Assembly: GCA_040954595.2 (NCBI GenBank)
Contig: CM082596.2
Span: 10,312,461-10,376,460, forward strand
Source: Balanoglossus misakiensis
Lineage: Eukaryota > Animalia > Hemichordata
DNA length: 64,000 nucleotides
Direction: 5' to 3'
The notes under the pieces are model-generated. The model made no database searches. It worked only from the letters and a program-made list of their open reading frames with translations, and had not been told where the DNA came from. Made by a program: the position numbers and the translations under genes. Shown here piece after piece: positions 36,668 to 60,035 of this stretch; within the stretch, counting starts at the first letter, position 1; every line of letters starts with the position of its first letter.

Positions 36668-37185
36668 ACATGGGGATTAAATGCACATGCGTGTGTATTT
36701 AAAGTTAACTGTAAATCCCCAGGTTAATACGTGGCCAAAAGCACTGTAATTTGGCATTTCTAATGATGGTGAGATGTTGTTTGCTCCCCAGGGAGTTGAA
36801 TGGAATATTTAGGTCCAACATCCTAGGTCAAATGACCATGGGACAACTTAAAGCACGTTGAGATTTAATGTGCTACATAAGTTATAAATATTATAAAAAT
36901 ATTATTACATAAACAACACTCTTCCTTAGCAAAGGAAGTGGTCAGGTGAAATATATTCGCAGAGCTGACCAATTCTTTAAGGAAAATTAAAGTTGGGTAA
37001 TTTGGATGTATTCATACGAGTGTTGGTCAATGATAGGAAAGTCCTTTGTTCATTTTCAAAATGAAAACCAAAACACACTGAATTACGTATGGGATATTGA
37101 TGTTGCCTAATTTGCGTGACTCTACATTTACTTAAACTCTCACAGGGAGACAAATGTCACAGCAAACGGAAAAATGATTATGCTA
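36668..37185 (+). repeat. Second copy of the composite satellite-end/SINE-tail repeat
   Basis: Collinear with 32571-33092. Confidence 0.85.
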
Positions 37186-37187
37186 AG

Positions 37188-39155
37188 CAATACGCCAACC
37201 TTTAAAATATTACTTTAGAAAGTTTGTATTCATACTTTCTTCAAGTTGTCATAACGCTATCCCGAAATGTGTTTAAGTATTGCCTTTGTATTAATGGGCT
37301 AGATTCATGGCGTTATATGTCATAAATTAAAAAGCCAACCCTTATTGATTTTGATAATATTTATGTCGGAGAATCCACAATGAAAAATATGTATTTCAAT
37401 TTCATAACTCAAAATGATTTTCAAATCCATGACCTTATTTTCAACTCCAGTGATCGTACATCCTGAACCTTGTGCCAGTAAATGATTGGCCATTACAGGG
37501 TTAATGGGCACTCTCCCGTTCTCTTCCTCCGCAGTTTCATTCATGTTCTTGTTTGACGGAAATGGGTGTGACCAGACGCTTGAATGTTTTCATGTGGGTG
37601 TCGTTGTTCATCGGGATCGGTCTCCTGGTGTGTCTGTACAGGTACGCAAGGAGAAACTGCCCACAAGAAGCTGCGAGTGAAACTATTTAAGGTAGTATGT
37701 GCCTCGCGGTCCGAGATTCAGACAAATGATAGTCCTCAAAACTTTTTCAAGTCTTTGATTTACTAAAGTGTATGGTGAGTCTCTTTGAAAACAACAAAAA
37801 CATTACTCACCATATTGTTATTTTTTTGAAAGTTTAAAATGAAGTTGACAATGTACCAAACAGATTCTATTTATTTCTTCATGACCATGTTCACCCCAAG
37901 GTCATATGGACCTGCAAGTATATGCCAGAGCCAGAGTCGACATTACCGAAGCCAGAGTTCAAAGCTTGCAGGTCACCCCTTGCCAGCTCATGTCTAGCTA
38001 AACTGCCATGGATGCCAAGAGATATAGGACTACAGTAACCTGTAGATGGTTTCAGTATGTTTGAAGAAAGTGGTGGCGCACTTTTGGCTACATTTGAAAT
38101 GGCTATGGTACCAGTGGTTGAATTTGCAAAGGTGACCTTTGACCTGGTATCATTAAAGATATTAAAGAACGATTGAACATTCCTTGTTGTCGTAAAATGA
38201 CATCTGTAATAACTTATATTTTATCTGTTCATCTTGAAGTACTATATATTTAAACGCCAATTTTCCATTGCCAATCAATTTTTACAAATAAATTGTAATA
38301 TGCATGTTGATTTTACAAAAACTCCTTACTTCAAAGTGAATTCTGTTACACATCACGTAAATATTTTCCCCACGAATTCTTCAGTTGCTGACTCGGAAAT
38401 TTCATATATTGGGCAGAAATTGGATACATTACCGAGCCATTAAAATTACAGTTTTCTATTTTAATTGATCTTCCATAACTTCAAGTACTTTGATTTGACA
38501 TAAATTAAAAACATCATGGTGAATAAATAAAAAATCTTTGATTATCTAATTGTGCATGTTTACATGGTTTTATTTTAGTATGCTGGGTACTTAATGTCTA
38601 ATTGCTCGCTGATTTTATACTGTTCAAGATGACAATCTAATTTTAGTTTTCAGCTGATAATGGAAATTACTGATTAAAAAAATTGAATTTTGTCATGAAT
38701 AAACTTGTTGTTCATGGCAGTTGCTGTATTTTGTTTCATGTGTATTCAATTTTTGCAAGAATACCATTGAGCACAGTTTGATTTGATTAAACACGTTTAT
38801 CGGAAAATTTTGTCATTTGAAATATCTGTTTTTGCGCCCTCTACCATTTGACCAAATGATTCTCTTATTTTGGTGGCCTTTGTCTGTGTATATGAGAATA
38901 CTATAGTACTCTCGCATCGATGATAGTAGAAGTTGAAAACGTCTCTTGCCACGTGGCCTAGAAGAAAGGTGATCTTTAGAGTAAAATAAAACAAACTATC
39001 CAGATAGGAAGCTAGAAAAGAAGTTGAATCGTTGAAATTTTATTTATTTTTATATTGTTAATATCGTTGGTGATGTTGACTGGCCGACAATCTTTGTCAC
39101 ACCAGTATTTGCAGGTAGATTAAAACATTGCCTATTCCAGCAATAATCACAACAG
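37188..39155 (+). repeat. ~1.97-kb direct repeat, copy 1 (copy 2 at 53931-55898)
   Basis: The two copies are near-identical from CAATACGCCAACCTTTAAAATATTAC to CCAGCAATAATCACAACAG. Confidence 0.95.
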
Positions 39156-39367
39156 TCTTACTTTCTATCTTTGTAAGCGTTAATCTTTATTGACCTCGCT
39201 TGTTGTTTTGTGTTTTTGTGTTGGTTTTGTTTTTGTTTTGTTTTTTTAGTAGTTTCATAATTTTATTTGTATTTTTAAAATGTTTTCCTGTTTTTTGTTT
39301 ACTTTTTTATTTTTTTTACTATTTGTTGATTGTAATGCTGTATGGGTCTCGACTGTCGGTCCCAACT

Positions 39368-40664
39368 TGTCATATAATTAGGTAGTACTGGAGTCAGTGG
39401 AAACCCAGGTGCCCGCATAATTTCAGGTGTAGTGACACCGTGTATTGTCATGTTAATGAATAGGGCTTCGTTAGCTAAGTTTCGTGTAGTAAGAGAGCAC
39501 ACTTCAATTTAGGTCTTGAAGGGAGCAACAAGTCGGGTCTCCCTGCTCAGTGAGTAGAAATACTAGGGGAAATATTGCACCATACCTTGCTGTGTCCATG
39601 TAATGCTGTAGCGCGCATTAGTGCTCTCAGGACCACTGTTTCTGCAATTCGAGTGGAAGTAAATTCAGTACTTCTAGAAAGCAGAATTGTGCTTATTCAG
39701 TGCAAACCGGTGTGGTCGGGCGATTGGCGTGGCTGGCATGGTCGTATGTGGTGTGGCTGGAAATTGCTCCAAGCAGAGTTCTGTGGAACCATCCTATAGA
39801 TCCGGTATTGCTGAGCATGAAGTGTGGTGAAGAATTCTCGTGTAAGTAATGTATTTGTTTATTTATTTACTATAACTTAAATTTATATTTTATGGATATT
39901 TATGTCAAATTCGACAATTTGTAAGTAATAGGACGGTCATAGTTAAAGCATAATTTTCCATGATATCACATGTAATCATGACGCTTTAACTAGTCCAAAT
40001 TTCTGATAATTATTATTGAGAAACATCAGTATTCATTTGTGAACAGTTGCTAAGGTGGACATTTCAGTCAATGTTTGTTGATTTTTCATTCAGCCATTTA
40101 ACCCAAGACTTGCATCTAACAAGTCAGTCTTCAGTGTGTTTACTTGACTACTGGAGGACTACAAGTGGTAGAAAACATGGTGTATCACAGATTGTATGTG
40201 TAATGTGGATCGTCGCTACATCGTTCATCTATACAGGACTCCATCCCATATTGTGGTTGAATCATGATTGTTTACTATGAATGTTATATACAGCTAAGTG
40301 ACACTTACCATTGTTTAGACAATATGCAATAGACAATAAACTATAGTGATATTGTGAATATATTCATTTATGTAATATATTAAGTAACCCATTGTATTGT
40401 ATGACCAATTGTATCAGCATACCTGTACCTGCTAAATTGGTTAGGACAGAGACATTTGATATTGTGCATATTGTGCACAAAAATTATATTCCTAGTATTA
40501 TCTTTATATTATTTAATTGATTTAAATTAAATCAACTGTATTATTGTATCCGCACTGGTTTGTGTAGTTTCTCCCCATACCTTATCCACGGATGTTTACT
40601 CCTTGGCACTGAGAGCTGCTCAATATTTATCCTGGAATCAGAGGGGTGCCCTCCACCTCTGACA
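39368..40664 (+). repeat. 5' LTR (~1297 bp)
   Basis: It starts TGTCA and ends TGACA, 2 nt upstream of the PBS. AATAAA is at 40335. The left boundary matches the break in homology with the paralogous site at 56209-56232. Confidence 0.78.
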
Positions 40665-40666
40665 TT

Positions 40667-40683
40667 TGGGGGCTCGTCCGGGA
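40667..40683 (+). promoter_or_regulatory. Primer binding site complementary to the tRNA-Pro 3' end
   Basis: TGGGGGCTCGTCCGGGA directly follows the LTR end. Confidence 0.9.
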
Positions 40684-40964
40684 GTTTTATCGTTTTGTTG
40701 TGCATTTGTTTGTATACTATCATAAATTGTTGCCATATAGTGGAGACCATGGTTTTGATAGGTAGAGATTCTGCAAATTGTGAAGACGGTGCTGGGTCTG
40801 TAGGCTGGTACTGTTACTGTATGTGTGCTTGTGGTTTCCTGCTATATAATATGGGCCGTGTTGGTTTGCGTCGTGCGTTTGGCTGTGTTGACTTGTGCTG
40901 AATGCCCTGTACTGCTAGGGGTTGTCAAACTGGGGGTTGTAAATCGCGATACAGCAAAGCATAT

Positions 40965-42775
40965 ATGCAGAAAGAATATCTAAGATAGGGAGAAAATTTG
41001 GGTTGGAAGGGACTGCTTTAAAAGATTATGTTAGAGAGGAACAAATTAGACAGAGGGATCTTAGGGCTACTGAGAGAGAGGAGCAGAGAGAAGATAATAG
41101 GCGGCGCGAGGAACATGAGAGAGAGATACTGAAAATGCAAATTCACTTACAAGAATTAAAATTGAAAGGGGAAAATACAGAACAGCAGGTTACTGAAAAT
41201 AATTTGGCCAAAGCGCGTGCTCCGAGACTACAGGGTTTACGTGAGGATGTTGATGATATGGATGCGTACCTTCAACGTTTTCAGCGCTACGCCACTGCTC
41301 AGAAGTGGGAAAAAGATGACTGGGGGTGAATCTCAGTGCATATTGTTACAAGGTAAGGATGTATCCACATACAACCAAATGCCTGCAGCGTCTGCAAATA
41401 ATTATGATGAATTGAAACCAGAGTTATTGAGGGCTTACCAGTTAAGTGAGGAGAGTTTTCATGACAAGTTCCGTTCGTGTATGCCACATTATGATGAAAG
41501 TGCTCAAAAGTTTATGGACCGTATTGGTGACTATTTGGGCAGATGGGTAGAACTGGCTGGTACTCCAAAGACGTACAATGGGCTTACAGATCTGTTACTT
41601 CGAGAGCAGTTTATTGGAGTATGTTCCAGAGACATGGCAATGTTCATTAGAGAGCGACGGCCAGAGAATGTCCAAGAGATGGTATCTACTGCCTCAAAAT
41701 ACTTAGATGCCCGAGGGTGGTGGAAACTGCCAAGTAATGCCAAGAATAATCCAAGGAGCCAGCCGACAGCAAATACCAAGCCTGCTGTATATCCAAATCA
41801 AGTAAATAAGTTTAATAACAAAACCAATGGTTCCCATGTTTTTAAAGGTACGTGCTTCGTATGTGGTAAAGGTGGTCATATGGCCAAAGATTGTAGAAGT
41901 AAGCCAAAGATGCATAAGACGGCGGTATTGTTAACTGAAGAAGATAGAAACTATCCACCTAAACAAGAATGTACACATTGGGGCAACCGTCAACAGCCCA
42001 GGGGACTAGACACTGGTTATGCATGTATGGTGGTAGCAATGGAAATAGATAAAACAGATGCAACACTGAATAAGGAGTTCGTGTTACCATGTGGTCATAA
42101 GCTCCCAGTGATGAGTGCTGCTTGTAGTGCCCATGGAGTGAAGAAGATGCCGGTAATGAAGGGATTGGTCGATGGTAAGCTGGTTAGCGTTTTGCGTGAT
42201 AGTGGGTGTAGTAGCGTGGTAGTTCGAAGAAGTCTGGTGTCAAGTAATCAGCTGACTGGTGAGTACAGGACGTGTGTTCTGATAGATGGGACTATTAGAA
42301 GAGTACCTGTAGCCTCTATAAAAGTTGATACCCCTTACTTTGTTGGTGATGTTACTGCACTGTGCATGATGAACCCTGTGTATGATTTAATACTGGGCAA
42401 CATTGATGGTGTATCTGACCCTTCGAATCCTGATACTACATGGCAGGAACCATTGCCGACATGTAGACTGTGTACAACTGTTGGACAGGTACCAGGTTTA
42501 GCAAATGCTGTGGAGACCAGAGCCCAGAAGATAGCCAACCAAAAACCAATCAGAGAGCTTAAAGTACCTAAAGCTGTTGGTGAAGTGGTGATGCCAGGGA
42601 AGCTTCAACAAGCTCAAGAAGAAGACTCCACTCTTGACAAACTACGTGAGAAGGCAATTTTGGGTGACGAGAAAGTGACTAGGAATGGAGGTAGGTTGAA
42701 GTTCTTCATGAAAGATGGGATCCTGTACAGAGAGTTCAATTCGCCAATGGTCCAATTTGGTGAAAAGCTGTTACA
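40965..42775 (+). pseudogene. gag: Gag (coiled-coil N-terminus, SCAN-like capsid region, CCHC knuckle) plus aspartic protease, frameshifted near 41325
   Basis: Motifs include DDMDAYLQRFQRYA, LLREQF...IRERRP (SCAN-like), CFVCGKGGHMAKDC and the protease motif LRDSGCSSVVV. The sequence is split over ORFs 41003-41329 and 41217-42878. Confidence 0.88.
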
Positions 42776-42859
42776 CACTGCGGGAAATACTAGAGCTATG
42801 TTGGGCAGTATTCCGCGAAGCGCGAGCTCCCATGTTCACCATAGCAACGCATTGCCAAG

Positions 42860-43510
42860 ATGGCGGCGCCCGTGTTGATCGATGCCGAGAAAGTTATAAA
42901 ACGCAAATTGCGAGAGGCAAAATCTGTGCTTAAACGTAAAAAATGCGTGTCGGACAATCTGTATATACACCCACTCTTTGATGAACTTGAGGATGTGACA
43001 ACAAGGGCCATATTTCGAAACGACAAGCTGTCAAAGGACAAGATTCGTTGGCGTGACGTCGCCGTATTTCCCATGTTTCAGCGTGATATGACCTACTGGC
43101 AGAAGACCTTCTACGCTCGGCTGTCAACATCCCCGTCGTTAAGGTCACCATGGCAAAGCAGCTTTACACAACAAATGCCGAGGGAAGTATTTGATGTTTT
43201 TCATCAGTTTGCTACTCGGACCGGTTTTGGTATCGACGAGAAGACCTCCAGGGCTATCATAACCTTGACCTTCACAAGTTCCTCGAAGCTATTGTATGTG
43301 ATACGGAAAGGTTATTGCTACGAGGGCGCTATCGGTCAGCATACAGAGAATATCCTAGAGAAGAAAGTCCGTGGAAAGAGGGTAGCTGTTATATGCACAC
43401 CTGAGAAGCCCTGTGTTGTGAAATATTTTATCAACAGGGAGACTGTTGCTGTTAGATTCAGCTTTGGTGCCTGGAACAAACATGGAATTCCATTACATCC
43501 AGAGAACTGA
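42860..43510 (+). CDS. 216-aa basic protein of unknown function, transposon accessory ORF, convergent with the transposase
   Basis: The ORF is uninterrupted and has a strong start context (CCAAGATGGCGGCG) 84 bp inside the element end. AATAAA is at 43639. No domain is recognised. Confidence 0.75.
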   Translation: MAAPVLIDAEKVIKRKLREAKSVLKRKKCVSDNLYIHPLFDELEDVTTRAIFRNDKLSKDKIRWRDVAVFPMFQRDMTYWQKTFYARLSTSPSLRSPWQSSFTQQMPREVFDVFHQFATRTGFGIDEKTSRAIITLTFTSSSKLLYVIRKGYCYEGAIGQHTENILEKKVRGKRVAVICTPEKPCVVKYFINRETVAVRFSFGAWNKHGIPLHPEN

Positions 43511-44362
43511 ACCCTATTGATTTTTCACACTGATTCAACCCATCTGACGAACATTTTTTTCCTGATCTGTGGCACATGTTGTTCAGTGTAGATGTATCAG
43601 TCTGTCAAGACAGTCCTCTCACAATTGACATATATTCAAATAAAAAAAGGAAAATTAGAAGACTCAAAAATTCATCACTTGTCTTTATTTATCTACATTC
43701 AATACAAATGAACAGATAACGTTTACAAAATTTCCTAAACTGTAAAATTCTTTTTTTCCATCATTATTGTAACATAGATTTTTCATTAGTTTCAGAAAAA
43801 AATGTATGTTACCTACAATCAACATTGATAAGTCAATCAAAACTGCTCATCTAACAGTTAACCAGGATTTCTGGTCTAAATTTAATTAATATTTACATTT
43901 AATTCCATGACAAAATTTATAAATATCAAGAATTTGATGAGACTTAATTCTTTATTTTTTCACAAATTCATTAAAATTTCGTGCAGGTGCAGAATAAACA
44001 ACTCCTCAAGAAAAATGTAAAACTTTTCTATCAAGCTTATGTATGTCATACATTTTAATTTTGCAAAGCACTGCAATCACTATACGATTAAGGGTTTATT
44101 CACAATACTTAATAGTGGTAAGATAAGTTTCAATTTCCCTGTCCCCATACATGCACACATATACAAAATCCCATAAGAAACATATCATCTCCAGTTCAAA
44201 AAGTGTGAATTCATGTGATTTGTGATCTCCATTTTTATTAAATGCAGCTCTCAACTACAGATGAGTCTTTATAATTCTGTAATGTAATTAATACCATAGT
44301 TATCCTTTAATTCTAAAGTAGCACACAGTGACACAATCCACTGTTTCAAATTCAATCATTGT

Positions 44363-46603
44363 TCACAGCATAAGTTTCTTGAGTTTATTTGATATTTTAC
44401 CAGTGACAGCTGCTTTTTTTATGTCATCCATAATTGGGTCAACACATATTTCACAGGCAGTCATTGTTTCATTTTTCAAATTGCCACACATACAGTAGCC
44501 TGCATTCTCATAATATCGACTGGGAATGTATTTTTCTTTTTCTTTAAGCTCAAATTGACCTACATTTGCCCTTCTATAGTTGTCAGCTTTTGGACTTTTG
44601 TTCCTCAGCCAAAAAAGCATCACATATTCGTGTCGAAATATGAGGGCCCACCTATTTTGAGGTGTAGAATTTTCACTGAATTCTAGCAGGCGTAGATGCT
44701 TTGCCTCTCTGCCTTCCATTGTGTTTAGGCCTAATCCCAGACTGAATTGCTTATAGATACTAGTGGTGTGTTTTGGGACTACATAACCAATGTGCCACAC
44801 AGTATTATTGACATTCAGAAACAGGGAATGTAGATTAAAGTACCACCGACACTTATGCCTAAGTACAAGCAAATCTCCCTCATTTATGTTGAATCGTGAG
44901 AATAACAAAGTGATATCTCTAAGCAAGATACCAGTATATGTGTAGAGAGCTAATTGAGCCCGACGCTTTGGACTGTCTGTATCGCTTCTCAATGCTAATA
45001 CCAATCCCATGAAATGCCAAGCAAGTTTGCGAGACTCCTCACCAGTGAAGCGATAAACCACATTAATGTTGGCATTTGACTTGACACTATTTTCATTGAA
45101 GTATTTTACAATCTTATTATACAACTTTCCAGCTTTTACTTGATATTTTAGGGCAGACAGGAATTTGTACAGATATGACTCGTTAGGTAGATTCTCAATT
45201 TTAACTCCATTTTCACGACCCTTTTCCGAAGTGTGGGCAACTGCGTCAATCAGTAATCGTTGGAAGTAGTATTGCCATGCATTGTTCTTTAAATGCAATG
45301 GCTCAGCCTTGGCACAATCAATAAATCTACCCAACGGTGGTACAAATTCCTGTCTTGACCTCAGACTGGCTATAAATTGTGTGATTTTGGGTCGCACTGT
45401 TTTGGGCTTTCCAGTTTTAATTTTCTTAGTTGACTTCAACTTTTCAACAGCTTCTGCATCTTTAATTCTTTTCTGATATTTCCATTCATCCCACTTCTGA
45501 CCTGGGCCAATTTCTGCTCCAATACAATCAATATCATTTTTGGAAACGTTAGCAAATGAGCTGAAATACTTTGCTGCATTGCTTAGTTCTCCAGACACAC
45601 TGGCCAATCCCTTCTGATCAAAGGGTAAAAGTGACACCTGAAAAGTTACATCAAGACTGCCAACTTTATATTTACGTTTCTCAATACACTCAAGGTCTTT
45701 TGACAATGCAATTGCAAATTCAATCATTATGGGGTCATCCTCTTTTATGTTTGCCCCTAATAGGAGAAAATTGTGGTCTGGGCTAGCAACACGGTGGGTC
45801 ACATTCAAGAAACTAACTAGCCATGCAGTGGCCTGTCCATGTTTGCCAAACGGAGCCCCGTCAGCACCTATACTGATTTGAAATGAGCCCTCCTGTTTAC
45901 CGAACCAGTTAAGAATATCAGGCTGTGTTTCCCCCATATTTAAATATAAACTGGCAATCTTAATAAGCAACTCCTCAGGGTTTCTTTTTAAGCCGACTTG
46001 TTTGCCTTCAGATGATATAATTGGCTCAAGATTTCCAATGTCAAGGTTACTTACATACTGTACAACTTTTGTGTATGGGAGCAGTCTTGGTATTCTACAG
46101 CCAGAATGAATTTCTAATGCTTTCCTAGGATGTTTCAAGTTGGAGAACATCTGAAGTTCACTCTGCCTCAGACAGTTATATTTTCGTTTGGATAGTACTC
46201 CGCCCTCATACATAGTTCTGACACTCCTCACCAAATTGTTCTCACTTTTCTCAAATTTACTGATGTATTTATCAAATACTGATGGCATTACTTTTTTACT
46301 GATTTGGGGAGAGGTTCTGAAGTTTGTTTTCATTTGGTCAGGAGTGGCAGAATTAACAAGAGTATACCACAAACCATCAAGTGCTGCTTTTGGTGGATGT
46401 AGTACATTCGGTTTATTTATACCTTTGGCTGGGCTTACATCTGTAGTTGCTACATGAATATTTATGGCTGCTGATAAGGTTTCACACCTACGTTCATACT
46501 GTTGACGTCGCGACAGCTTCAAAGATTCACTATTATCTGCACATACTTCAGTGTTCTTGTGGACCCATTTAGAGCGTTTCACATTAACATCATCAACAGG
46601 AAT
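44363..46603 (-). CDS. DDE transposase, main coding exon (RAG1/Transib/Chapaev/EnSpm-like core)
   Basis: The ORF is open for 746 codons from a phase-0 acceptor (CTTTCAG|ATT). Candidate catalytic motifs are IGADGAPFGK, PFDQK, EPLHLKNN and GLNTMEGREAKH. A C-terminal CMC...CEIC motif is present. Confidence 0.85.
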   Translation of the reverse strand: MPVDDVNVKRSKWVHKNTEVCADNSESLKLSRRQQYERRCETLSAAINIHVATTDVSPAKGINKPNVLHPPKAALDGLWYTLVNSATPDQMKTNFRTSPQISKKVMPSVFDKYISKFEKSENNLVRSVRTMYEGGVLSKRKYNCLRQSELQMFSNLKHPRKALEIHSGCRIPRLLPYTKVVQYVSNLDIGNLEPIISSEGKQVGLKRNPEELLIKIASLYLNMGETQPDILNWFGKQEGSFQISIGADGAPFGKHGQATAWLVSFLNVTHRVASPDHNFLLLGANIKEDDPIMIEFAIALSKDLECIEKRKYKVGSLDVTFQVSLLPFDQKGLASVSGELSNAAKYFSSFANVSKNDIDCIGAEIGPGQKWDEWKYQKRIKDAEAVEKLKSTKKIKTGKPKTVRPKITQFIASLRSRQEFVPPLGRFIDCAKAEPLHLKNNAWQYYFQRLLIDAVAHTSEKGRENGVKIENLPNESYLYKFLSALKYQVKAGKLYNKIVKYFNENSVKSNANINVVYRFTGEESRKLAWHFMGLVLALRSDTDSPKRRAQLALYTYTGILLRDITLLFSRFNINEGDLLVLRHKCRWYFNLHSLFLNVNNTVWHIGYVVPKHTTSIYKQFSLGLGLNTMEGREAKHLRLLEFSENSTPQNRWALIFRHEYVMLFWLRNKSPKADNYRRANVGQFELKEKEKYIPSRYYENAGYCMCGNLKNETMTACEICVDPIMDDIKKAAVTGKISNKLKKLML

Positions 46604-46956
46604 CTGAAAGATTAAGTGTGTGATAAATATATACTAATTAGAATATAATCATAATATATAAAATAAAATCTTCTTACAAGTTAATCATTAATTTAAATGT
46701 CCTTGATAAGAAATACACACGTGTAGCCTGTATTTTTCTGACAACTTCTGCAATAAAAATCCTAAAAAATATATATAGTTTGTTGGAAAACCTAGATGTT
46801 TTGCATCAAAGCTGAACCCATTTTGTTCTCATTGTTTACACAGGATCATGTGACATGAAGTTCAAAAAGCGAATTTGGGCTAAAATTTGAAGAGGATTTA
46901 TACAAATCTGAGATTTTTAAAATTATGACTAAGTCTATTTATCTGATCTAGCTTAC

Positions 46957-47400
46957 CTTTCTCTTATTATTCTTTGTAGCTAAGATCTCACAAATCTTAC
47001 TGTTCTTCTTCTCTAGTCTAGCTAGCTGGGTTGAGGATCTTTTTACTAGTCTCATAGCTGCACTCAACTTATTCAACTTATCCTGAATTATGCTTTCTTC
47101 CTCATCTCTCTTTCTCTTTCTCTGTCTACACCACTCTCCTAAGTTAAACCTGTGTTTAGTCTGTCCTCTCTTTGTTCTAACTACCAATAGGTTGTTGGCC
47201 ACGCTCCCAGACAAAGATCTAGTCTTCAATTTCTCCTGATATAGTTGTTGCAAACACTTCTCTTCAGCTACCTGTCTCGCTATCTTTTGGTCCTTTGTCC
47301 ACTGGCCTATGTTGAAGTAACTTTTCCCTTTTCTATTCGGCATAACAATAGACAAACTTTTAAGAAGTGCGCTACTCCTGTTGAATAGTTTGCCCCACAT
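46957..47400 (-). CDS. Transposase N-terminal coding exon (predicted), basic and coiled-coil-like
   Basis: The start is GCCATGTGG at 47400. The phase-0 donor AAG|GTAAGC at 46957/46956 matches the phase-0 acceptor at 46604 (353-bp intron), giving a joined product of ~894 aa. An upstream acceptor at 47417 and donor at 47552 suggest a 5' UTR exon. Confidence 0.7.
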
Positions 47401-48252
47401 GGCTCTAAATCTATACCTGAAAAGGGTGATCAAGAGAAATATCTTTACAATAATTATCTATCCGAGGGAAGCAAAAACAAAACACCTGCTCATTATACTT
47501 CCTCCAGAAATTGAGGTCAAAGGTGACATAGAAAGAATGTGGGTAACCTTACCATAACAATCTCGCCCGTTCATTTTTTTCTTATTTCGTTTTCACCCTC
47601 GAATTTCCAGCGAATTATATCAAGAATATATTTTAGCACAAACTATTGGTTTCTGATTTTTCAGTTACGGTCTTATTTTCTGTCAATTCTATGAACAATA
47701 TCACCATGTCGCTGAAAATTCGAAGCGCCGCCATTACAATCAATGTAACCCGTGCTGCTGCCAAGGAACACACAGGGTCGTATATTTTCGCTTGGTATGA
47801 TTTCGTCATATTGCTTGTAGCAGCATTTTAAACATGGAATCCTATGTTTACGTATAAAAGACTAAATTCGTATGGTTTTCAAATTGAAAAAAACAATTCT
47901 GTGAAGCTGAATCGTTGTAATTTTTAGTGTTTGTTTATGGTTGCTTAGGACGGCTTCTGCTATAGCAACGGCCAGGGACTGTCAGCGGGTGATCAAAATG
48001 TTCAAGTTATTTGGCTGATACACATAAATAACACAGCAGAATCGCAACTTTATTTCATATTGTCTCTGACATCTTGCTAATTTTACTAAACAAAACTTGG
48101 AATAAAGCAATATTACTCACCGAATTATGCTGTGCATCGACAGCTGTGTTCGATCGCGAACGCCATTACTGTGTCTAATTAAATATTCATGAGCTTCATA
48201 GGCTGCCACGGAAATACTGCCCATAGGTGGCGTCGTTCAAGCTGTAGTGACA

Positions 48253-50200
48253 GGTGGTGGTTCCCAGAGTGTATCGTAACCAGGTGATGAGACTAGCCCA
48301 TGAATCAGTGCTGGGTGGTCACCACGGAACTCACAAGACCACAGACAAGATCCTCAGCAACTTCGTTTGGCCTGGGCTAACATCAGATGTTTCCCGTTAC
48401 TGTCAGTCCTGTGATTCATGTCAACGGACACAACCAAAGGGACGGGTGACCAAGGTACCACTTGGAAGTATGCCACTAATAGATATCCCTTTCCTACGTA
48501 TTGCAGTAGACCTGGTTGGCCCTATTCATCCATGCACTGAACGCAAGAATAGGTACATACTTACTGTTGTTGATTATGCAACACGCTATCCGGAGGCTGT
48601 TGCATTGACTAACATTGATACCAAGACTGTTGCAGAGGCGCTCCTGGACATCTACTCAAGAGTGGGGTGTCCACGTGAAATTCTGACAGATCAAGGAACT
48701 CAATTTACATCAGATGTGATGCGTGAGGTCAGCCGGCTTTTGTCTATAAAGCAGAAGACTACCACCCCATACCACCCAGCATTCAATGGTCTAGTGGAAC
48801 GGTTCAATGGTACATTGAAACTCATGCTCAGGAAGATGTGTGAGGAACGTCCAACATATTGGGATCGTTATCTGAATGCTTTACTATTTGCCTACAGAGA
48901 AACGCCTCAATCGAGCACAGGATTCTCTCCGTTTGAGTTACTTTATGGGAGGAGTGTGCGTGGTCCAATGGCTATCTTGAAAGAACTATGGACTGGAGAG
49001 ATCAGTGAACCAGAAACCAAAACGACTTATCAATACATCCTTGATCTTCAAAAGAAATTAAAGAAGGCATGCGATTTAGCAAGACAAGAACTGAAGATAT
49101 CACAAGGCAAATACAAGTCCTACTACAATAGAAAGGCCAAATGGAGGAAGTTCAACAAAGGTGACGAGGTGTTATTGCTACTACCTACTGACCATAATAA
49201 ACTACTTATGCACTGGAAGGGTCCTTTTCCAGTGGTGGAGAAAGCGAGCAATATGGATTACAAGATTGACTTTGGTCATAGGGTGAAAACATTCCATGCC
49301 AACCTGTTGAAGAGGTACTATCGAAGAACTGATCAGCTAGATGAAGTATCAGCTGGACTTCTTGAGATTGTGTGTGTATCTGTGATAGATGAGCAGAGTT
49401 ATGAATCTTCAGAAGTACAAGAGAACACAGGGGTTAAAGTAAACGATGACTTACTGCGGGTTCCTGCATTCAAGCAGAAAGAATTTGCTGCAGATGTGAA
49501 TGTATGTGACAACTTGTCAGACATACAGGAGCAAGTGGTGAGGAGGTTGCTGATCAATTACAAAGATATGTTAACTGATATTCGTGGTAACACCAACCTG
49601 GGTTTCCATGACATCAAGTTGATGGATCCAACACCAGTATGCAGTAGGCCATACCCCATCCCTCATGCACTCCGTGAAGCAGTGAAAGTCAAAACGATGA
49701 TTAAGATGGGAGTAGCTGAACCTTCAGGGAGTCCATATGCTGTTCCACTGGTAATGGTGAAGAAATCTGATGGGTCCAATCGTTGTTGTGTTGACATGAG
49801 AAAGCTCAATCGCATAACAGTGTTTGATGCAGAGCCTACACCAGACCTGAGTGATCTCAGCAAAGAATATTGGCAAGTCCCGTTGACTGATAATTCTAAA
49901 CAATTGACGGCATTTATCACGCATGATGGGCTATACCAATTTATCAAAATGCCTTTCGGACTTGTAAATAGTGCTGCGACTTTTAGCAGAATTATGAGAA
50001 GATTGTTAAGAGATATGAAGAACGTAGACAACTATATCGATCACATACTGATCCACACTGCATCATGGGAAGAACATATCAAGACAATTACAGATTTGAT
50101 GAGCAGACTACGAAAGGCAAAGTTAACAGCGAGACCAACTAAGTGTTATGTGGGTTATGAGCAGATCGATTTCCTGGGTCATGTGGTTGGTCATGGTGAA
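48253..50200 (+). pseudogene. pol: Pol remainder: integrase (HHCC, DDE core, GPY/F) followed by a defective reverse transcriptase
   Basis: Integrase motifs are AHESVLGGHHG...CDSCQ, IAVDLVGP, ILTDQGTQF, GLVERFNGTLK and WKGPF. RT motifs are KKSDGSNRCCVDMRKLN and MPFGLVNSAATF. YIDD is mutated to YIDH, there is an apparent deletion before DLSKEYWQ, and homology ends after FLGHVVG. Confidence 0.92.
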
Positions 50201-50229
50201 CTAGTCCTGTTTCAAAATGACCTACATTA

Positions 50230-50580
50230 CAGGTCCTATGCACACGTATTACATGTTCTGATTGGTTTATCCACTTCTCTAAGGTCCACTTGCGGCTCGC
50301 TGATTGGAGGGACCTTATGTGTTAGGTCTTATTACTATGTATTATTCACCAGACCTTGTAGGTTAGGTCTTATTACAATGCATTATTCACTTTACAGCTC
50401 CCTGATTGGTTAATGTGTAGGTCTGGTCCTCCAGTGTTCACTGCCTCATTATGCAGGACCTTGTAGGTTAGGTCTTATTAATATGTATTTATTCACCATA
50501 CAGCTCCCTGATTGGTTAACGTGTCAGTCTGGTCCCCCCCCCCCAGTGTTCACTGCCTCATTGTGAAATGTCCCATGTGC
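50230..50580. repeat. Short degenerate tandem repeats replacing the 3' part of pol
   Basis: GACCTTGTAGGTTAGGTCTTATTA and CAGCTCCCTGATTGGTTAA each recur two to three times. Confidence 0.6.
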
Positions 50581-51553
50581 TTCCTGGCTAGCGTTGTGGT
50601 AACATATTATTCGGGGTGTCCGCAGATCGTTCATTGATTTTCTGAGAAATAGCCTAACTGATACTATCTCCAACATAAACCGCACCCTGGAAAGATTAAA
50701 TGATCTTTTAGGTGGACTTTGAAAATCTGATTAACTCATCTAAGCATTTTAGCTAAGTTGTATATTTTTTAATTATAATCATACAAAATACTTAAAAAAT
50801 AAAAACAATGTTCAGTTTTAATACCCACTGATGAGGGGAAACATCAGTTTCAAATTCTTTTCATGGGAGCGCTTGAGCAGAGTTATGAGTTTTGCTCTGT
50901 GAAAGAAAATGGGGGGATTTCAAAATTTTGGCAGTTCGGAAGGGGGATTTCAAAATATTTCGGGTTGTGAAAGGGGGGGGGGGGCATGTGAAAATTAGCG
51001 GTAAAAGATGAATCCCCCCCCCCCCTCCAGAGGTGTTTGTGAATGCAGCCTAAGAAAGAAAAAATGTGAAATGGGTCAAATATGGGCCGGACGTGCCCAT
51101 TCAACTCAATTTACTTTTGTTTGCTTTAAGTAGGAATTGATCACAGCTATATTTATTTTGGACACCTGAGCGACAAGAAAACAATCTGATTCTACATTTT
51201 AAAAAGCGTCATTGGAAAAGCACTGCAATTTTGTTTCTTGCTTTAAAAAAGTTTGGGGTGGCATGTAATAATTAAGGTGTGTCTAAATTACTAATTTGGT
51301 GCACCTCAAAGCCCTTAGCCAATGTAAATTATATCCTGCATTGTATTCATGAAGGATATCCTCCCGCGAGGTCAATGCCATTCAATGTCAAACAGTCTCA
51401 ACAAAGACCATTGGACACTCATAGCCGTTTTGTATGAAAGTGACTGGAGTACGAGATGAGTTTCATGACAACAACAAATCATGCTCAGTCTCGCTGCAGG
51501 GTCTATAATTTCAATAACGGCTAGACGCTGGACACTATCTTAGGTAACACTTT

Positions 51554-51609
51554 AGGGTCATAGTGCTGGAACGACATGTTTAAACAGGTCGTTCCGGCAC
51601 TCTGACCCT
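51554..51609. repeat. 56-bp near-perfect palindrome
   Basis: AGGGTCATAGTGCTGGAACGACATGTTT|AAACAGGTCGTTCCGGCACTCTGACCCT, with three mismatched pairs. Confidence 0.8.
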
Positions 51610-52103
51610 TTCGGCCCCAGTCGTTTCAGCCCCCATTTTCCACGACCCAAGTCGTTACAGCCCGGACAGTAACACCCCAAACATTTCAACACTTATCAGG
51701 GAAGACCTTAGCCCAACTATTAAAACTTGGCTTGAACCTACTTAAGTTCTCCGCATGAAATATGAGCGAGCGTTGTCAGAGGACGACAGCTACGCACACT
51801 TTGGGCGTGACCGAATCAAACAGAATTGAATATTCTATATTCGGAAAAAACACCTTATCTCCGTTTTGCCGTTGACAAACCGATTTCTGTCATGACAGTT
51901 ACTCCCGGGGACTGTGACAGACCATATACAGACAGTAGAGGCCGCGCGCTGGGGGTCTACACAAGTCACTACAGCTGATGTAAGCAAGTACAACATGCTT
52001 TGCTTGCAGGAATGTTCCATTTTCAATAGAGGGGTGTGTATATTCAGAGGGAATGTCAGTCGAGGCCCTGGCTGGCAACATGCGGCGTATATATTGACAA
52101 TCT

Positions 52104-53031
52104 TAGCCGGGAGACCAGGGCGTCGATCTAAAATACAACGCTCGGGGACAGTCGAGCAAGTCCTGCTGAGCTGAAAGATAGTAGTCTTGGCAACGATCGA
52201 GGTCGCTTAGTAACAAATGGATAACGAGTGATCTATCAAATGTTGACGGGCGCCAGTGGTTGGATGATATAATTAAAGGCACGTAAGCTGTAACTGGATA
52301 AAAAATTAAAGTTTTAAATAATCTCATATATGCTTTTAATTATGTCTATTAAATGCTATTTCATGATAATATATCAAGCTCAACACTTATTTATGACAAA
52401 ATGGCCAAAAATTAAAGAAAAACGAAAATTCCTGCAATTTAAAAAAAAGCGCAATATTGCAATGAAAAATGAAAATCTGATGTCTCAGTGGTGTACATTT
52501 ACTTCCATGAGCTCAAGTGGATGAGATCATGTTTTGTTTATGAAGTTTCACAACCGGAAATGCAACATTTTCATTGTTTCTTGCATTTTCCCACGGTGGC
52601 GGCCATAATCGCTTGCGGCAAAGCTTTATTATTTATCTGGTTAAAACTTGCATATGCACTCATACTTAGGGTTTATAATGCTTGTGTATTGTTCACTACC
52701 TTCATCTGTATGGACTAATGGTAGTGCAGTTTGAAACAAAAATTATGAAAATTATCCCAAAAGTTACACCTTACGTGCCTTTAACAAAGCTTGGTTATGA
52801 ATATTCATACACCTTCAAAACCACTCCCACATCCCATCGCGGGAATTTCACACATGACTCCACCTCTATTTCCTTATTTAGAAGGCGACGATGTCATGTG
52901 GTTAACATTGAGTGACCAATTAGCTTACACGCAAGATTTACCACACGTGTCGTTCTACGAACAGAATTCTGTTCGTAAATAGAGACTGTCCCCGGGCGTT
53001 TCTTTTCCCCGACGCCCTGGTCTCCAGGCTA
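52104..53031. mobile_element. Non-autonomous DNA transposon with TAG...CTA ends and a 9-bp TSD (AcademH-like or MULE-like)
   Basis: The TIRs are TAGCCGGGAGACCAGGGCGTCG and CGACGCCCTGGTCTCCAGGCTA. TGACAATCT flanks both sides (52095-52103 and 53032-53040). Confidence 0.88.
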
Positions 53032-53343
53032 TGACAATCTCGCTGATAGGCGCAGCTGGAATTTATGTTTCTGTGGTATGATTATTGTATTTTATCAATG
53101 CACAATCACGATGGGCGAGTTTCAAGCAAGCAATTGGATTCGCTTCAATCCCTCACTAAAATCTAGACTGCACCACTGTATAATAACACAATACAGTCTT
53201 CTAGCCTCATGGTATAAACAGGAACTCTTGTCTGCTGGACATCCGGGTACTTTGGTCTACTGAGTGAACGCGTTACGTATAGAGGTAGCGCAAAGTGAAA
53301 ACCTATTTAAGGCAGCCACAACAATCAGTGTTGACGTACATAC

Positions 53344-53447
53344 AATCTGACTAAAATCGCAGTTGGTATGACGACAGCATACTAATAATACTGTACCACA
53401 TAAGTAAAAGACGTCGTCGTACCATACATCTGATTTTATTCAGATTA
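53344..53447. repeat. ~105-bp foldback mini-element, related to 53708-53817
   Basis: AATCTGACTAAAATC...GGTATGACGAC pairs with GTCGTCGTACC...GATTTTATTCAGATT. Confidence 0.65.
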
Positions 53448-53464
53448 CTGCATATTTGCATATA

Positions 53465-53671
53465 CTGTGAAACAAGTTATTTTCGCGAGCAATACATTTT
53501 CGCGAGATACGTGAGAGCCAAAATGGTATGAAAATAAGAGGTCGCATAATTATTTTTGAAGATAACGATGCAGTGAATGAAATAAGAGAACGCGAAAATT
53601 AATACTCGCGAAACAGTAGCCTCTCTCGATATCGTGAAAATTTCAACTCGCTAAAATAAAGTGTTTTACAG
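53465..53671. mobile_element. TA-flanked MITE
   Basis: TA|CTGTGAAACAAGTTATTTTCGCGAG ... CTCGCTAAAATAAAGTGTTTTACAG|TA, with internal CGCGAAAAT repeats. Confidence 0.75.
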
Positions 53672-53707
53672 TAGTTTATGTATGTAAATTGTTCCTGATG
53701 TTAACAC

Positions 53708-53817
53708 AATCTGATTAAAATCAGATGTAGGCCTAGGGAATGGCGACGTAGTTTTTTGATGCTGCGACAGCATAAAAAACACGTCGCCGTTCCCTACATC
53801 TGATTTTAATCAGATTA
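53708..53817. repeat. ~110-bp foldback mini-element
   Basis: AATCTGATTAAAATCAGATGTAGG ... CCTACATCTGATTTTAATCAGATT forms a perfect terminal stem. Confidence 0.75.
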
Positions 53818-53930
53818 GCGTTAACATAACTTTATCAGAATAAGTTAACGCCATAACTTTGACAGAATAAGAGTTGCCTCAAACGGCTCTAACCGATTTT
53901 CCATTAATAGCAGAACAAACAAGCTGTAAT

Positions 53931-55898
53931 CAATACGCCAACCTTTAAAATATTACTTTAGAAAGTTTGTATTCATACTTTCTTCAAGTTGTCATAACGC
54001 TAACCCGAAATGTGTTTTAGTATTGCCTTTGTATTAATGGGCTAGATTCATGGCGTTATATGTCATAAATTAAAAAGACAACCCTTATTGTTTTTGATAA
54101 TATTTATGTCGGAGAATCCACAATGAAAAATATGTATTTTCAATTTCATAACTCAAAATAATTTCCAAATCCATGACCTTATTTTCAACTCCAGTGATCG
54201 TACATCCTGAACCTTGTGCCAGTAAATGATTGGTCATTACAGGGTTAATGGGCACTCTCCCGTTCTCTTCCTCCGCAGTTTCATTCATGTTCTTGTTTGA
54301 CGGAAATGGGTGTGACCAGACGCTTGAATGTTTTCATGTGGGTTGAGTTGTTCATCGGGAACGGCCTCCTGGTGTGTCTGTACAGGTACGCAAGGAGAAA
54401 CTGCCCACAAGAAGCTGCGAGTGAAACTATTTAAGGTAGTATGTGCCTCGCGGTCCGAGATTCAGACAAATGATAGTCCTCAAAACTTTTTCAAGTAATT
54501 GATTTACTAAAGTGTGTGGTGAGTCTCTTTGAAAACAACAACAATATTACTCATCATATTGTAATTTTTTGAAACTATAAAATGAAGTTGACAATGCACC
54601 AAACAGATTCTATTTATTTCTTCATGACCATGTTCACCCCAAGGTCATATGGACCTGCAAGTATATGCCAGAGCCAGAGACGACATTACCGAAGCCAGAG
54701 TTTAAAGCTTACAGGTCACCCCTTGCCAGCTCATGACTAGCTAAACTGCCATGGATGCCAAGAGATATATGACTACGGTAACCTGTAGATGGTTTCAGTA
54801 TGTTTGAAGAAAGTGGTGGCGCACTTTTGGCTACATTTGAAATGGCTATGGTACCAGTGGTTGAATTTGCAAAGGTGACCTTTGACCTGGCATCTTTAAA
54901 GATATTAAAGAACGATTTACCATTCCTTGTTGTCGTAAAATGACATCTGTAATAACTTATATTTTATCTGTTCATCTTGAAGTACTATATATTTAAACGC
55001 CAATTTTCCATTGCCAATCAAGTTTTTACAAATAAATTGTAATATGCATGTTGATTTTACAAAAACTCCTTACTTCCAAGTGAATTCTGTTACACATCAC
55101 GTAACTATTTTCCCCACGAATTCTTCAGTTGCTAACTCGGAAATTTCATATATTGGGCAGAAATTGGATACATTACCCAGCCATTAAAATTACAGTTTTC
55201 TATTTTAATTGATCGTCCATAACTTCAAGTACTTTGACTTGACATACATTAAAAACATCATGGTGAATAAATAAAAATTATTTGATTATCTAATTGTGCA
55301 TGTTTACATGGTTTTATTTTAGTATGCTGGGTACTTAATGTCTAATGGCTCGCTGATTTTATACTGTTCAAGATGACAATCTAATTTTAGTTTTCAGCTG
55401 ATAATTGAAATCAATGATTCAAAAAAATTGAATTTTGACATGAATAAACTTCTTGTTCATGGCAGTTGCTGTGTTTTGTTTCATTTGTATTCAATTTTTG
55501 CAAGCATACCATTGAGCACAGTTTGATTTGATTAAACACGTTTATCGGAAAATTTTGTCATTTGAAATATCTGTTTTTGCGCCCTCTACCATTTGACCAA
55601 ATGATTCTCTTATTTTGGTGGCCTTTGTCTGTGTATATGAGAATACTATAGTACTCTCGCATCGATCATAGTAGAAGTTGAAAACGTCTCTTGCCACGTG
55701 GCCTGGAAGAAAGGCGATCTTTAGAGTAAAAAAAACAAACTATCCAGATAGGAAGCTAGAAAAGAAGTTGAATCGTTGAAATTTTATTTATTTTATATTG
55801 TTAATATCGTTGGTGATGTTGACTGGCCGACAATCTTTGTCACACGAGTCTTTTCAGGCAGATTAAAACATTGCCTATTCCAGCAATAATCACAACAG
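53931..55898 (+). repeat. ~1.97-kb direct repeat, copy 2
   Basis: Near-identical to 37188-39155. Confidence 0.95.
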
Positions 55899-56883: not shown

Positions 56884-59800
56884 TTTTTTTGATGATTTTC
56901 ACCGGTTTTTTTTTCAAAAATCGACGAACCCATGATTTTTTTCAAAATCGACGAAATTTTGAGATTTTGCAGTCGAAAATTTGTCATTTTGTTGATTTTC
57001 ACCCATGTTTTTTTTAAACAATCGACGAACCCATGATTTTTTTGTCATTTTTTGATGATTTTCACCCATGATTTTTCTCAAAAATCGACGAAATTTTGAG
57101 ATTTTGCAGTCGAAAATTTGTCATTTTTCGATGATTTTCATCCATGTTTTTTTTCAAAAATCGACGAAATTTTGAGATTTTGCAAAGTCGAAAATTTGTC
57201 ATTTTTTGATGATTTTCACCCATGATTTTTCTCAAAAATCGACGAAATTTTGAGATTTTGCAAAGTCGAAAATTTGTCATTTTTTGATGATTTTCACCCA
57301 TGATTTTTTTTTTCAAAAATCGACAAAATTCCCATTTTTTGAAGATTTTCTCCCATGTTTTTTTTTCAAAAATCGACGAACCCATGATTTTTTTCAAAAT
57401 CGACGAAATTTTGAGATTTTGAAAAAAATCATGGGTTCGTTGAATTTTGAAAAAAAAACATGGATGAAAATCATCAAAAAATGACAAATTTTCGACTTTG
57501 CAAAATCTCAAAATTTCGTCGATTTTGAAAAAAAATCATGGGTTCGTCGATTTTTGAAAAAAAAAATGGGTGAAAATCATCAAAATGACCAATGTTCGAC
57601 TTTGCAAATCTCAAAATTTCGTCGATTTTTGAAAAAAAAAAATCATGGGCTATACCTCATGAAAATCATCAACAAATGTCAAATTTTCAACTTTGCGAAA
57701 TCTCAAAAAATCGTCGATTTTTGAAAAAAAAACATGGGTTCGTCGATTTTTGAAAAAAAAATCATGGGCTATAGCTCATGAAAATCATCAACAAATGTCA
57801 AATTTTCAACTTTGCGAAATCTCAAAATTTCGTCGATTTTGAAAAAAATTATGGGTTCGTCGATTTTTGAAAAAAATCATGGGTGAAAATCATCAAAAAA
57901 TGACAAATTTTCGACTTTGCAAAATCTCAAAATTTCGTCGAATTTGAAAAAAATCATGGGTTCGTCGATTTTTGAAAAAAAAACATGGGTGAAAATCATC
58001 AAAAAATTACAAATTTTCGACTGCAAAATCTCAAAATTTGGTCGATTTTTGAAAAAAATCATGGTGAAAATCATCAAAAAATGACAAATTTTTGATTTTG
58101 CAAAATCTCAAAATTTCGTCGATTTTGAAAAAAATTATGGGTTCGTCGATTTTTGAAAAAAAACATGGTTGAATTTTCGACTTTGCAAAATCTCAAAATT
58201 TCGTCGATTTTGAAAAAAATCATGGGTTCGTTGATTTTTTAAAAAAACATGGGTGAAAATCATCAAAAATTTACAAATTTTCGACTGCAAAATTTCAAAA
58301 TTTCGTCGATTTTGAAAAAAAATCATGGGTTCGTTGATTTTTGTAAAAAAATCATGGGTGAAAATCATCAAAAAATGACAAATTTTCGATTTTCCAAATC
58401 TCAAAAGTTCGTCGATTTTGAAAAAAAATCATGGGTTCGTCGATTGTTTAAAAAAAACATTTTTGAAAAAAATCATGGTTGAAAATCATCAAAAAATGAC
58501 AAATTTTCGACTGCAAAATCTCAAAATTTTGTCGATTTTGAAAAAAGTATGGGTTCGTCGATTTTTAAAAAAAATCATGGGTGAAAATCATCAAAAAATG
58601 ACAAATTTTCGACTTTGCAAGAACTTCGAGATTTTCGTCGATTTTTGAAAAAAAAAATCGTGGGGGGGGGGGGAAATCATAAAAAAATGACAAATTTTCG
58701 ACTTTGCAAAATCTCAAAATATCGTCGATTTTGGAAAAAAAAAACATGGGTTCGTCGAAAAAAAAACATGGGTGAAAATCATCAAAAAATGACAAATTTT
58801 CGACTTTGCAAAATCTCAAAAGTCCGTCGATTTTGAAAAAAAATATGGGTGAAAATCTTCAAAAAATGACAAAGTTTCGACTTTGCAAAATCTCAAAATT
58901 TCATCGATTTCTGAAAAAAATCATAGGGGAAAATCATCAAAAAATGACAAATTTTCGACTGCACAATCTTAAAATTTCGTCAATTTTTGAAAAAAAATCA
59001 TGGGTAAAAATCATCAATAAATGAAAAATTTTCGACTTTGCAAAATCTCAAAATTTCGTCGATTTTTGAAAAAAATCATGGGTGAAAATCATCAAAAAAT
59101 GACAAATTTTCGACTTTGCAAAATTTTCAAAAATTCGTTGATTTTTGAAAAAAAAAATGGGTTATAGCTTATGAAAATCATCAACGAATGACAAATTTTC
59201 GACTTTGCAAAATCTCAAAATTTCGTCGATTTTGAAAAAAATCATGGTTTCGTCGATTTTTGAAAAAAAACATGGGTGAAAATCTTCAAAAAATGACAAA
59301 TTTTCGACTTTGCAAAAACTGAAAATTTCGTCGATTTTTGAAAAAAATAATGGGTGAAAATCATCAAAAAAGACAAAGTTTCGACTTTGCAAAATCTCAA
59401 AATTTCGTCGATTTCTGAAAAAAATCATGGGTAAAATCGTCAAAAAAATGACAGATTTTCGACAGCAAAATCTTAAAATTTCGTCAATTTTTAAAAAAAA
59501 AATCATGGTAAAAATCATCAAAAAATGACAAATTTTCGACTTTGCAAAATCTCAAAATTTCGTCAATTTTTGAAAAAAAAATCGTGGGGGGGGGGGAAAT
59601 CATCAAAAAAATGACAAATTTTCGACTTTGCAAAATTTTGAAAAATTCGTCGATTTTAAAAAAAAAACATGGGTTCGTCCATTTTTGAAAAAAAAAACAT
59701 GGGTGAAAATCATCAACAAATGACAAATGTTCAACTTTGCAAAATCTCAAAATTTCGTCGATTTTTGAAAATAAAATCGTGGGGGGAGGGAAATCATCAA

Positions 59801-60035
59801 AAAAATGACAAATTTTCGACTTTGCAAAATTTTCAAAAATTCGTCGATTTTTGAAAAAAAAAACATGGGTTCGTCCATTTTTGAAAAAAAAAACATGGGT
59901 GAAAATCGTCAACAAATGACAAATGTTCAACTTTGCAAAATCTCAAAATATTGTCGATTTTTGAAAAAAAACATGGGTTCGTCGATTTTTGAAAAAAAAA
60001 AAACATGGGTGAAAATCGTCAAAAAATGACACATT
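56884..60035. repeat. A/T-tract minisatellite (~70-100 bp variable units) with a polarity switch at ~57420
   Basis: Units such as AAAATCGACGAAATTTTGAGATTTTGCAAAGTCGAAAATTTGTCATTTTTTGATGATTTTCACCCATG run to ~57420, then appear as the reverse complement. Confidence 0.93.

Follow-up and report, generated by a model that had tools for sequence, protein, structure and literature searches.

Introduction

Definitions of the known families were taken from PMC9435367 and, in part, from PMC4411706, PMC4079192, PMC7204232, PMC10629977, PMC1131882, PMC8245031 and 10.1101/2021.09.26.461848. RAGL/ProtoRAG elements have CAC ends built of two blocks, two genes lying convergently inside these ends and a cysteine-rich C-terminal tail (PMC9435367; PMC7204232 and PMC10629977, in part); the tail motif is CX2CX3GHX4C, the partner is a six-bladed kelch propeller and the target-site duplication measures 5 bp. 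Transib has CAC ends, a single gene and a C(2)C zinc pair, and its core shares 26% mean identity with that of RAG1L (PMC9435367). Duplication length is labile within Transib, some elements of which (Nozomi-related) make 3-bp duplications (10.64898/2026.08.26.747230, in part).

Chapaev3 elements, from animal hosts, have 5'-CAC/GTG-3' ends, a 3-bp duplication (TWA), an LH motif and an N-terminal Chapa zinc-finger domain (PMC4079192 and PMC4411706, in part). The CMCT lineages (EnSpm/CACTA, Mirage, Plavaka, ESTA and Lanisha among them) have CA..TG ends, duplications of 2–5 bp and a DDE core of RAG1-like structure (PMC12730594 and PMC8245031, in part); C(2)C is given for all seven of them and for RAG1 (PMC12730594, 2025, in part). 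In EnSpm, 3-bp duplications and a second protein are known, and ESTA duplicates TA (same sources, in part).

The element described here was located in a window (the whole analysed stretch) of 64,000 nt from Balanoglossus misakiensis. It belongs to a real, conserved two-gene transposon lineage, the enzyme of which lacks the canonical zinc cysteines, is predicted to have the RAG1 fold and is accompanied by a co-evolving non-RAG2 partner.

Results and Discussion

Insert and host site

The insert (5,474 bp; ends CAC…GTG) runs from 42776 (CACTG) to 48249 (TAGTG) and interrupts an LTR retroelement:

37184–55898, plus strand: host LTR retroelement around the insert, not part of the transposon
42773–42775, plus strand: left copy of the target-site duplication, ACA (read from the sequence)
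48250–48252, plus strand: right copy of the target-site duplication, ACA (read from the sequence)

Duplication lengths of 2–9 were tried at the borders and 3 bp (ACA) alone fits, which bears out the length, ends and duplication given in an earlier note on this DNA. The LTRs of the host (37184–39155 and 53927–55898) are 96.8% identical, and its domain order is SCAN, CCHC, protease, integrase, RT. The retroelement flanks on both sides of the insert are in phase with each other, and the match to the Pfam integrase zinc-binding profile starts just past the insertion, at residue 4 of the right flank; this agrees with the proposed restoration of the host pol frame on removal of the insert. No Rfam family was found in the element.

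Transposase gene

Two genes lie tail to tail inside the insert:

42860–43510, plus strand: partner gene, 216 aa, single exon, basic (pI 9.9)
43511–44362, no strand assigned: AT-rich stretch between both stop codons, with polyadenylation-like hexamers on both strands (putative function)
44363–46603, minus strand: transposase main exon, open frame of 746 aa, DDE core of predicted RAG1 fold
46604–46956, minus strand: predicted GT-AG intron of the transposase gene (sequence-based prediction)
46957–47416, minus strand: predicted upstream coding exon, basic and helical, with two F-N-(I/L)-G-x-W repeats and without CxxC

The predicted splice is in frame and the upstream exon has no internal stop; the product would count 894 aa from the ATG at 47400 or 875 aa from that at 47343. 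The upstream exon contains 3 Cys, none of them in a CxxC; related elements carry a short basic upstream exon weakly similar to it. An HA-domain match in this exon (E 2e-4, 21.9 bits) was discarded as lying under the family cut-off (28.4).

Of 7,995 candidates scored, 243 were homologues of the transposase at E≤0.001. The closest of the 120 matches listed was from Ptychodera flava (74%); the other 119 stood at 34–45%, with anthozoans as the named hosts. All 120 listed proteins are unnamed or "uncharacterized" and have no precomputed Pfam domain (120/120). Pfam searches with the window transposase alone or with 45 aligned members gave no family, and EnSpm transposase domains were absent from the 45 members at E≤0.05; at E≤10, PDB searches (phmmer; 45-sequence profile) retrieved chains of neither RAG1 nor Transib. 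No relatives were found in viral contigs. One relative from prokaryote genomes (low GC, satellite-like array, 37% identity like the animal copies) is, on these properties, likely misbinned animal DNA.

Residues D248, D329 and E633 (main-exon numbering) are invariant in 121/121 aligned sequences and, from motif order and predicted fold, probably correspond to the RAG1 triad. With the open exon and the in-frame predicted intron, these residues uphold the earlier assignment of a minus-strand, putatively spliced DDE transposase. The C(2)C zinc pair was found in 0/121 sequences within residues 329–376, its expected place, and in 3/121 over the whole stretch from D329 to E633, where its position is not conserved. 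The H(3-4)H motif is present in 65/121 and its second His in 117/121; the window sequence has Tyr at the first place. A C-terminal CxC-x(9-13)-CxxC motif is kept in at least 114/121 (C704, C706, C717 and C720 in the window).

Transposase fold

The AlphaFold model of the transposase (pLDDT 87.5) gave as best Foldseek matches RAG1 (E 2e-12), HzTransib (1e-6), BbRAG1L (2e-6) and the P element (5e-3). VIA Z values were 22.8 for RAG1 (rmsd 4.1, 471 aligned), 20.2 for HzTransib (6PQX; rmsd 4.1, 422 aligned), 20.0 for amphioxus BbRAG1L (rmsd 4.2, 460 aligned) and 11.1 for the P element (rmsd 5.7, 365 aligned). The predicted core thus finds its best structural match in RAGL/ProtoRAG and RAG1–RAG2 (5ZDZ, 6B40; Z 20–23), "closest to RAG1" meaning closest among solved structures, since no EnSpm or Chapaev structure came up for comparison. 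The earlier description of the transposase as a RAG1/EnSpm intermediate therefore goes beyond what these comparisons support. Identity over the structural alignments is 9–13% to RAG1/Transib and 8–13% over all four structures. A RAG1/Transib fold is accordingly predicted for the transposase. Its chemistry might differ now that the zinc cysteines are gone, a point counted against the explanation preferred below.

Partner protein

The model of the partner (pLDDT 91.7) consists of three long N-terminal helices followed by a small alpha/beta domain; RL..PW and (Y/F)G.WN..G.P.H are its conserved motifs. A word-index search with the partner alone gave no match; 75 representatives, mostly of 200–245 aa, were recovered at E≤0.001 by full HMMER searching. 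Among full-length partners, 54/62 have a pI above 8.5. Sixteen homologues bear a newer Pfam number, PF26709. The convergent plus-strand frame claimed earlier is confirmed, and the non-kelch nature of its product is borne out by this model and by the lack of any kelch Pfam match in 78 members. No chromatin-reader or enzyme domain was detected (Pfam on 78 members, PADLOC, PDB profile), the partner-alignment profile was blank against PADLOC and PDB, and the partner and transposase profiles are unrelated.

Fold searches against PDB and BFVD gave no match at E≤0.001. The best structural Z (7.7) is confined to the N-terminal helical hairpin, and the alpha/beta domain reaches Z≤5.0 (RnlA, archaeal virus proteins); for the modelled partner these searches establish neither a known nor a new fold. 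An Argonaute N-terminal identity, proposed by language-model clusters (0.93), had a low recognition score and was not reproduced with a homologue; it was dropped, no Argonaute Pfam family being present in the 78 members and the fold searches giving it no support. In a nemertean, one domain homologous to the partner closes a Tau/MAP gene model.

Termini

The two ends are organised as follows:

42776–42812, plus strand: partner-side terminus; CACTGC block, spacer of about 20 nt, second block TGGGCAGTATT at 42802–42812
48213–48249, minus strand: transposase-side terminus; CACTAC block, spacer, second block TGGGCAGTATT at 48223–48213, at equal offset

Over their outermost 10 nt the two ends agree at 6/10 positions, as expected from the very short imperfect inverted repeats described earlier; that description overlooked the bipartite ends, the block TGGGCAGTATT being identical (11/11) at nt 27–37 from each end (chance about 2e-5). 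The same two-block pattern was seen in 9 related elements. Over these and the window element, end-to-end identity is 0.94 at nt 1–10, 0.34 at nt 17–21, 0.70 at nt 28–33 and 0.26 at nt 41–50; this high-low-high profile identifies the ends as two-block with equal spacing on both sides. The ends of the relatives begin CACGC(C/T)GGG or a close variant, from which the window termini deviate by decay or by a subfamily difference.

Pairing of the two genes in relatives

Metagenome contigs were scanned and the best 80 of 225 transposase loci were used; from the named homologues, these loci are likely cnidarian host DNA. With the window partner as query, a downstream homologue on the opposite strand was found in 31/80; with the partner family (a query set including 16 proteins from these same loci), a convergent homologue was found in 35/80. 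Counted by the downstream length available, the convergent partner was present in 35/45 (at least 1 kb), 32/35 (at least 1.5 kb) and 19/20 (at least 2.5 kb). Loci with no detected partner mostly reached the contig edge; three (L028, L040, L073; 3/35) have none despite at least 1.5 kb downstream, and in L020 the terminus lies 120 nt past the transposase, with no partner. Homologues of the transposase thus generally carry the small frame, contrary to what a one-off capture, named earlier as the refuting case, would give; the CAC ends and 3-bp duplications recur with it.

Clustering at 90% transposase identity puts the 80 loci into 53 families, and the partner was seen in 18 of these. For 17 families plus the window, partner and transposase trees have 10/15 splits in common and the distances correlate (Mantel rho 0.65, p 0.0001): the two genes co-evolve and are inherited together. 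The partner diverges faster (mean identity 24% vs 42%). In the one family pair measurable for dN/dS (L003–L022; more distant pairs are saturated), the partner value is 0.27 and the transposase value 0.17, and partner frames are intact at about 24% identity. The partner is under purifying selection, dN/dS being from that one pair, and is held as part of the element. The partner ATG lies 84 nt inside the terminus in the window and 70–131 nt inside the end in 14 relatives; in 5/10 relatives, a segment of the partner gene has recently been copied, in inverted orientation, close to the opposite end. As to other cargo (e.g. a chromodomain), 63 of the 96 ORFs listed from partner-less or long loci were scanned, and none had a Pfam match.

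Mobility and state of the window copy

Exact 3-bp duplications (TAG, AGC, ATT, GAT, AAT) flank 5/11 complete relatives, against 2% by chance (P about 1e-6), and no 4- or 5-bp duplications were found among the 11. Six have no 3-bp duplication; in the pairs L012/L013 and L018/L019 the left flank is common and the right flank different, and the missing duplication is attributed to collapsed multi-copy assembly, a cause assumed for the remaining ones too. In several families the same ends are found at different flanks, which attests to past mobility in the relatives.

Contigs of one sample span both insert junctions unbroken and contain the same insertion. They differ from the window by 28 substitutions in 8 kb and by two 1-bp indels in the main exon (44471 and 45544), which represent a second, frameshifted allele or error; both genes are uninterrupted, as had been stated, in the window sequence, but the main exon is not so in these contigs. 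No empty-site joint was seen in the sample contigs examined (the one loose end, at 42774, has just 8 nt, too few to be of use). Since the copy looks single in this host, with no sign of several young copies, and the second allele would be frameshifted, present activity of the window copy is unsupported.

Comparison with described families

The locus shares with RAGL/ProtoRAG the CAC ends, the convergent layout, the two-block ends and a cysteine-rich tail, along with the predicted core structure. It differs in identity (9–13%, with no HMM match), in its partner (a 216-aa alpha/beta protein in place of the kelch propeller), in the 3-bp duplication, in the tail motif (CxC...CxxC), in having no ZnC2 cysteines, N-terminal zinc fingers or RING, unlike RAGL/RAG1, and in the equal block spacing at both ends. 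The earlier likening to ProtoRAG therefore holds for layout and predicted fold, whereas kelch partner, 5-bp duplication and tail motif are all absent. With Transib the locus has in common the predicted fold and the CAC ends; it departs from it by its two genes, the absence of C(2)C and a core identity of 12–13%, well below the Transib–RAG1L figure.

The ends, the duplication length, the LH motif and the animal hosts resemble those of Chapaev3. None of the six duplications is TWA (0/6, the ACA of the window included), unlike Chapaev3 as defined in part of PMC4079192 and PMC4411706; the Chapa domain is absent from the N terminus of the predicted gene model, there is no C(2)C, and a conserved second gene is present. 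The end type, duplication range and DDE core also agree with those of the CMCT lineages, from which the absence of C(2)C sets the locus apart; for Lanisha, the distinction is drawn from the C(2)C given for the lineages as a whole, not from its sequence. ESTA is distinguished by its TA duplication, the one here being of 3 bp and not TA. EnSpm/CACTA differs by its Pfam EnSpm domain and subterminal repeat arrays, both absent here, and by its second gene, which is here separate and convergent. In plant CACTA, TnpA and TnpD are co-oriented.

The statement that the element fits no recognised family is sustained so far as the element fails the RAGL, Transib and Chapaev3 tests; the 3-bp duplication on which it partly leaned is weak evidence of novelty, because some Transib elements make one. 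No published description of the lineage was found in the literature covered, which lay outside Repbase Reports and most subscription journals. As judged against the literature and not against Repbase or Dfam entries, the element probably represents a two-gene lineage within the CMCT clade that has not been described before, and is no ProtoRAG.

Proposed mechanism and alternatives

The predicted fold, the triad and the duplications point to cut-and-paste transposition in which a DDE enzyme of RAG1 fold cuts with a stagger of 3 bp. The transposase would excise the element at its CAC ends and insert it with a 3-bp duplication; cleavage would be by nick and hairpin, as in RAG, RAGL and Transib (PMC10629977, in part). 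By the predicted fold, the catalytic core may read the terminal CAC block, and the C-terminal CxC...CxxC may bind zinc and grip the end DNA, the role of the RAG1L tail. Charge, conservation and analogy suggest that the basic partner might bind the second end block and/or the transposase, building the paired-end complex; it would then fill, with an unrelated fold, the role of RAG2L in ProtoRAG, and perhaps it also makes up for the zinc site missing from the core. A two-gene transposon in which a transposase of predicted RAG1/Transib fold works with a convergent partner, likely a cofactor of transposition, is the reading we favour, at somewhat better than even chances. Co-inheritance of the partner fits any benefit to the element, not just the cofactor role.

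One such benefit would be regulation: the partner could act outside the cutting complex, against piRNA or chromatin silencing or by tuning transposase expression. MuDR, Harbinger and En/Spm have conserved second genes that are described as regulatory (PMC1131882, in part), the partner is basic and evolves faster than the transposase, its ATG lies so near the end that the terminus could drive expression, and the inverted partial copy could yield regulatory RNA; the Argonaute lead would also suit this role, but it came from one language-model search and fell with the checks given above. Neither a chromatin-reader nor an enzyme domain was detected in the partner, and its strict retention in one orientation in divergent families suits regulator and cofactor alike. 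A regulator is on balance considered unlikely. Passive cargo, captured by a one-gene Transib-like element, is a far weaker proposition: the few loci with no partner and the partner-like domain at the end of the nemertean gene model would agree with it, but 18 families with the same partner place and orientation, congruent trees, a dN/dS of about 0.27 and intact frames at the identity found largely refute it.

A different doubt concerns novelty, since the lineage may already be catalogued (Repbase, Dfam, RepeatMasker) as EnSpm, Chapaev3 or Transib or under a Repbase Reports name, with the anatomy alone being new. Its families are abundant in the well-studied Nematostella, Acropora, Porites and Pocillopora, CAC..GTG ends with 3-bp duplications suffice for filing as EnSpm (PMC12730594, in part), PF26709 is already assigned to partner homologues, and Lanisha is described in Repbase Reports only. 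Against this stand the absence of any Pfam transposase family from the 45 aligned members and of precomputed ones from all 120 listed homologues, the lack of the C(2)C of all seven CMCT lineages and RAG1 (PMC12730594, in part), duplications unlike those of Chapaev3, and a literature (Repbase Reports outside its scope) with no description of the lineage. Prior cataloguing is therefore a real possibility, though a doubtful one, and the lineage is probably undescribed, again as judged against the literature.

Conclusion

The two-gene transposon with a likely cofactor appears to be a second, undescribed two-gene design in the RAG1 family. More tentatively, and with the balance of belief still against it, it may form a separate superfamily-level RAG1-fold lineage (anthozoans, hemichordates, nemerteans) in which the core zinc site was lost and an obligate partner of new fold was independently recruited. 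Were that so, there would be a second machine built of a RAG1-type enzyme and a partner, laid out as in ProtoRAG and recognising two-block ends; acquisition of a second subunit would be a repeatable step and RAG2 not a one-off. Already the lineage shows that a family of predicted RAG1 fold can lack the zinc cysteines ascribed to every member of the clade, and it accounts for hundreds of coral and anemone proteins now labelled "uncharacterized" as transposon genes.

RAG1 is the enzyme that assembles antibody genes, and the origin of V(D)J recombination poses the unsolved question of how a one-gene Transib-like enzyme came to need RAG2. An unrelated, co-evolving partner, joined to an enzyme of the same predicted fold in the same layout, is a natural comparison for RAG2, and intact copies make it open to experiment.

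Host LTR retroelement and other repeats of the window
37184-55898 (+): host LTR retroelement that received the transposon; SCAN-like gag domain, integrase 5' of reverse transcriptase
1-5420: 116-bp tandem array, at the left edge of the window
56885-64000: complex region of direct and inverted repeats, to the end of the window

The LTRs of the host element are 1.97 kb long and 96.8% identical to each other, and the element is broken at further points besides the transposon site. The placing of integrase before reverse transcriptase, together with the SCAN-like gag, is the order of Gmr1-type elements. A second copy of CACTACAGC, the 9 nt with which the transposon begins on its transposase side (read inward from 48249), lies at 51967-51975; no similarity beyond these 9 nt was found there, and the match is probably due to chance.

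Inverted partner-gene copies in relatives
Among ten related transposase loci examined, five carry an inverted copy of part of their own partner gene (100-340 nt, 88-96% identity) 5' of the transposase gene (coordinates within each locus):
L012: 1401-1507
L017: 569-746
L019: 806-903
L056: 3705-3857
L081: 4861-5199

Such copies are present in more than one family. They may have been left behind by gap repair, or may serve to produce regulatory RNA; the window transposon has no copy of this kind.

At L081 the complete pair of transposase and partner genes is embedded in a tandem array, the unit of which includes the terminus-like CACGCCTGGG:
L081:1-4000 and 12950-14043: tandem array, 294-bp unit

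The L081 contig was binned into an Anaerolineae genome; it is likely animal host DNA. At another relative, L020, a terminus is found about 120 nt past the transposase stop and the partner gene is absent (L020:3044-3164); this locus is probably an internal deletion derivative.

Partner-family domain in Tubulanus polymorphus
In P0184, a gene model of Tubulanus polymorphus, Tau/MAP repeats are fused to a C-terminal partner-family domain (residues 459-609); the fusion is either an exonised transposon or an annotation artefact. P0184 widens the range of the partner family to nemerteans.
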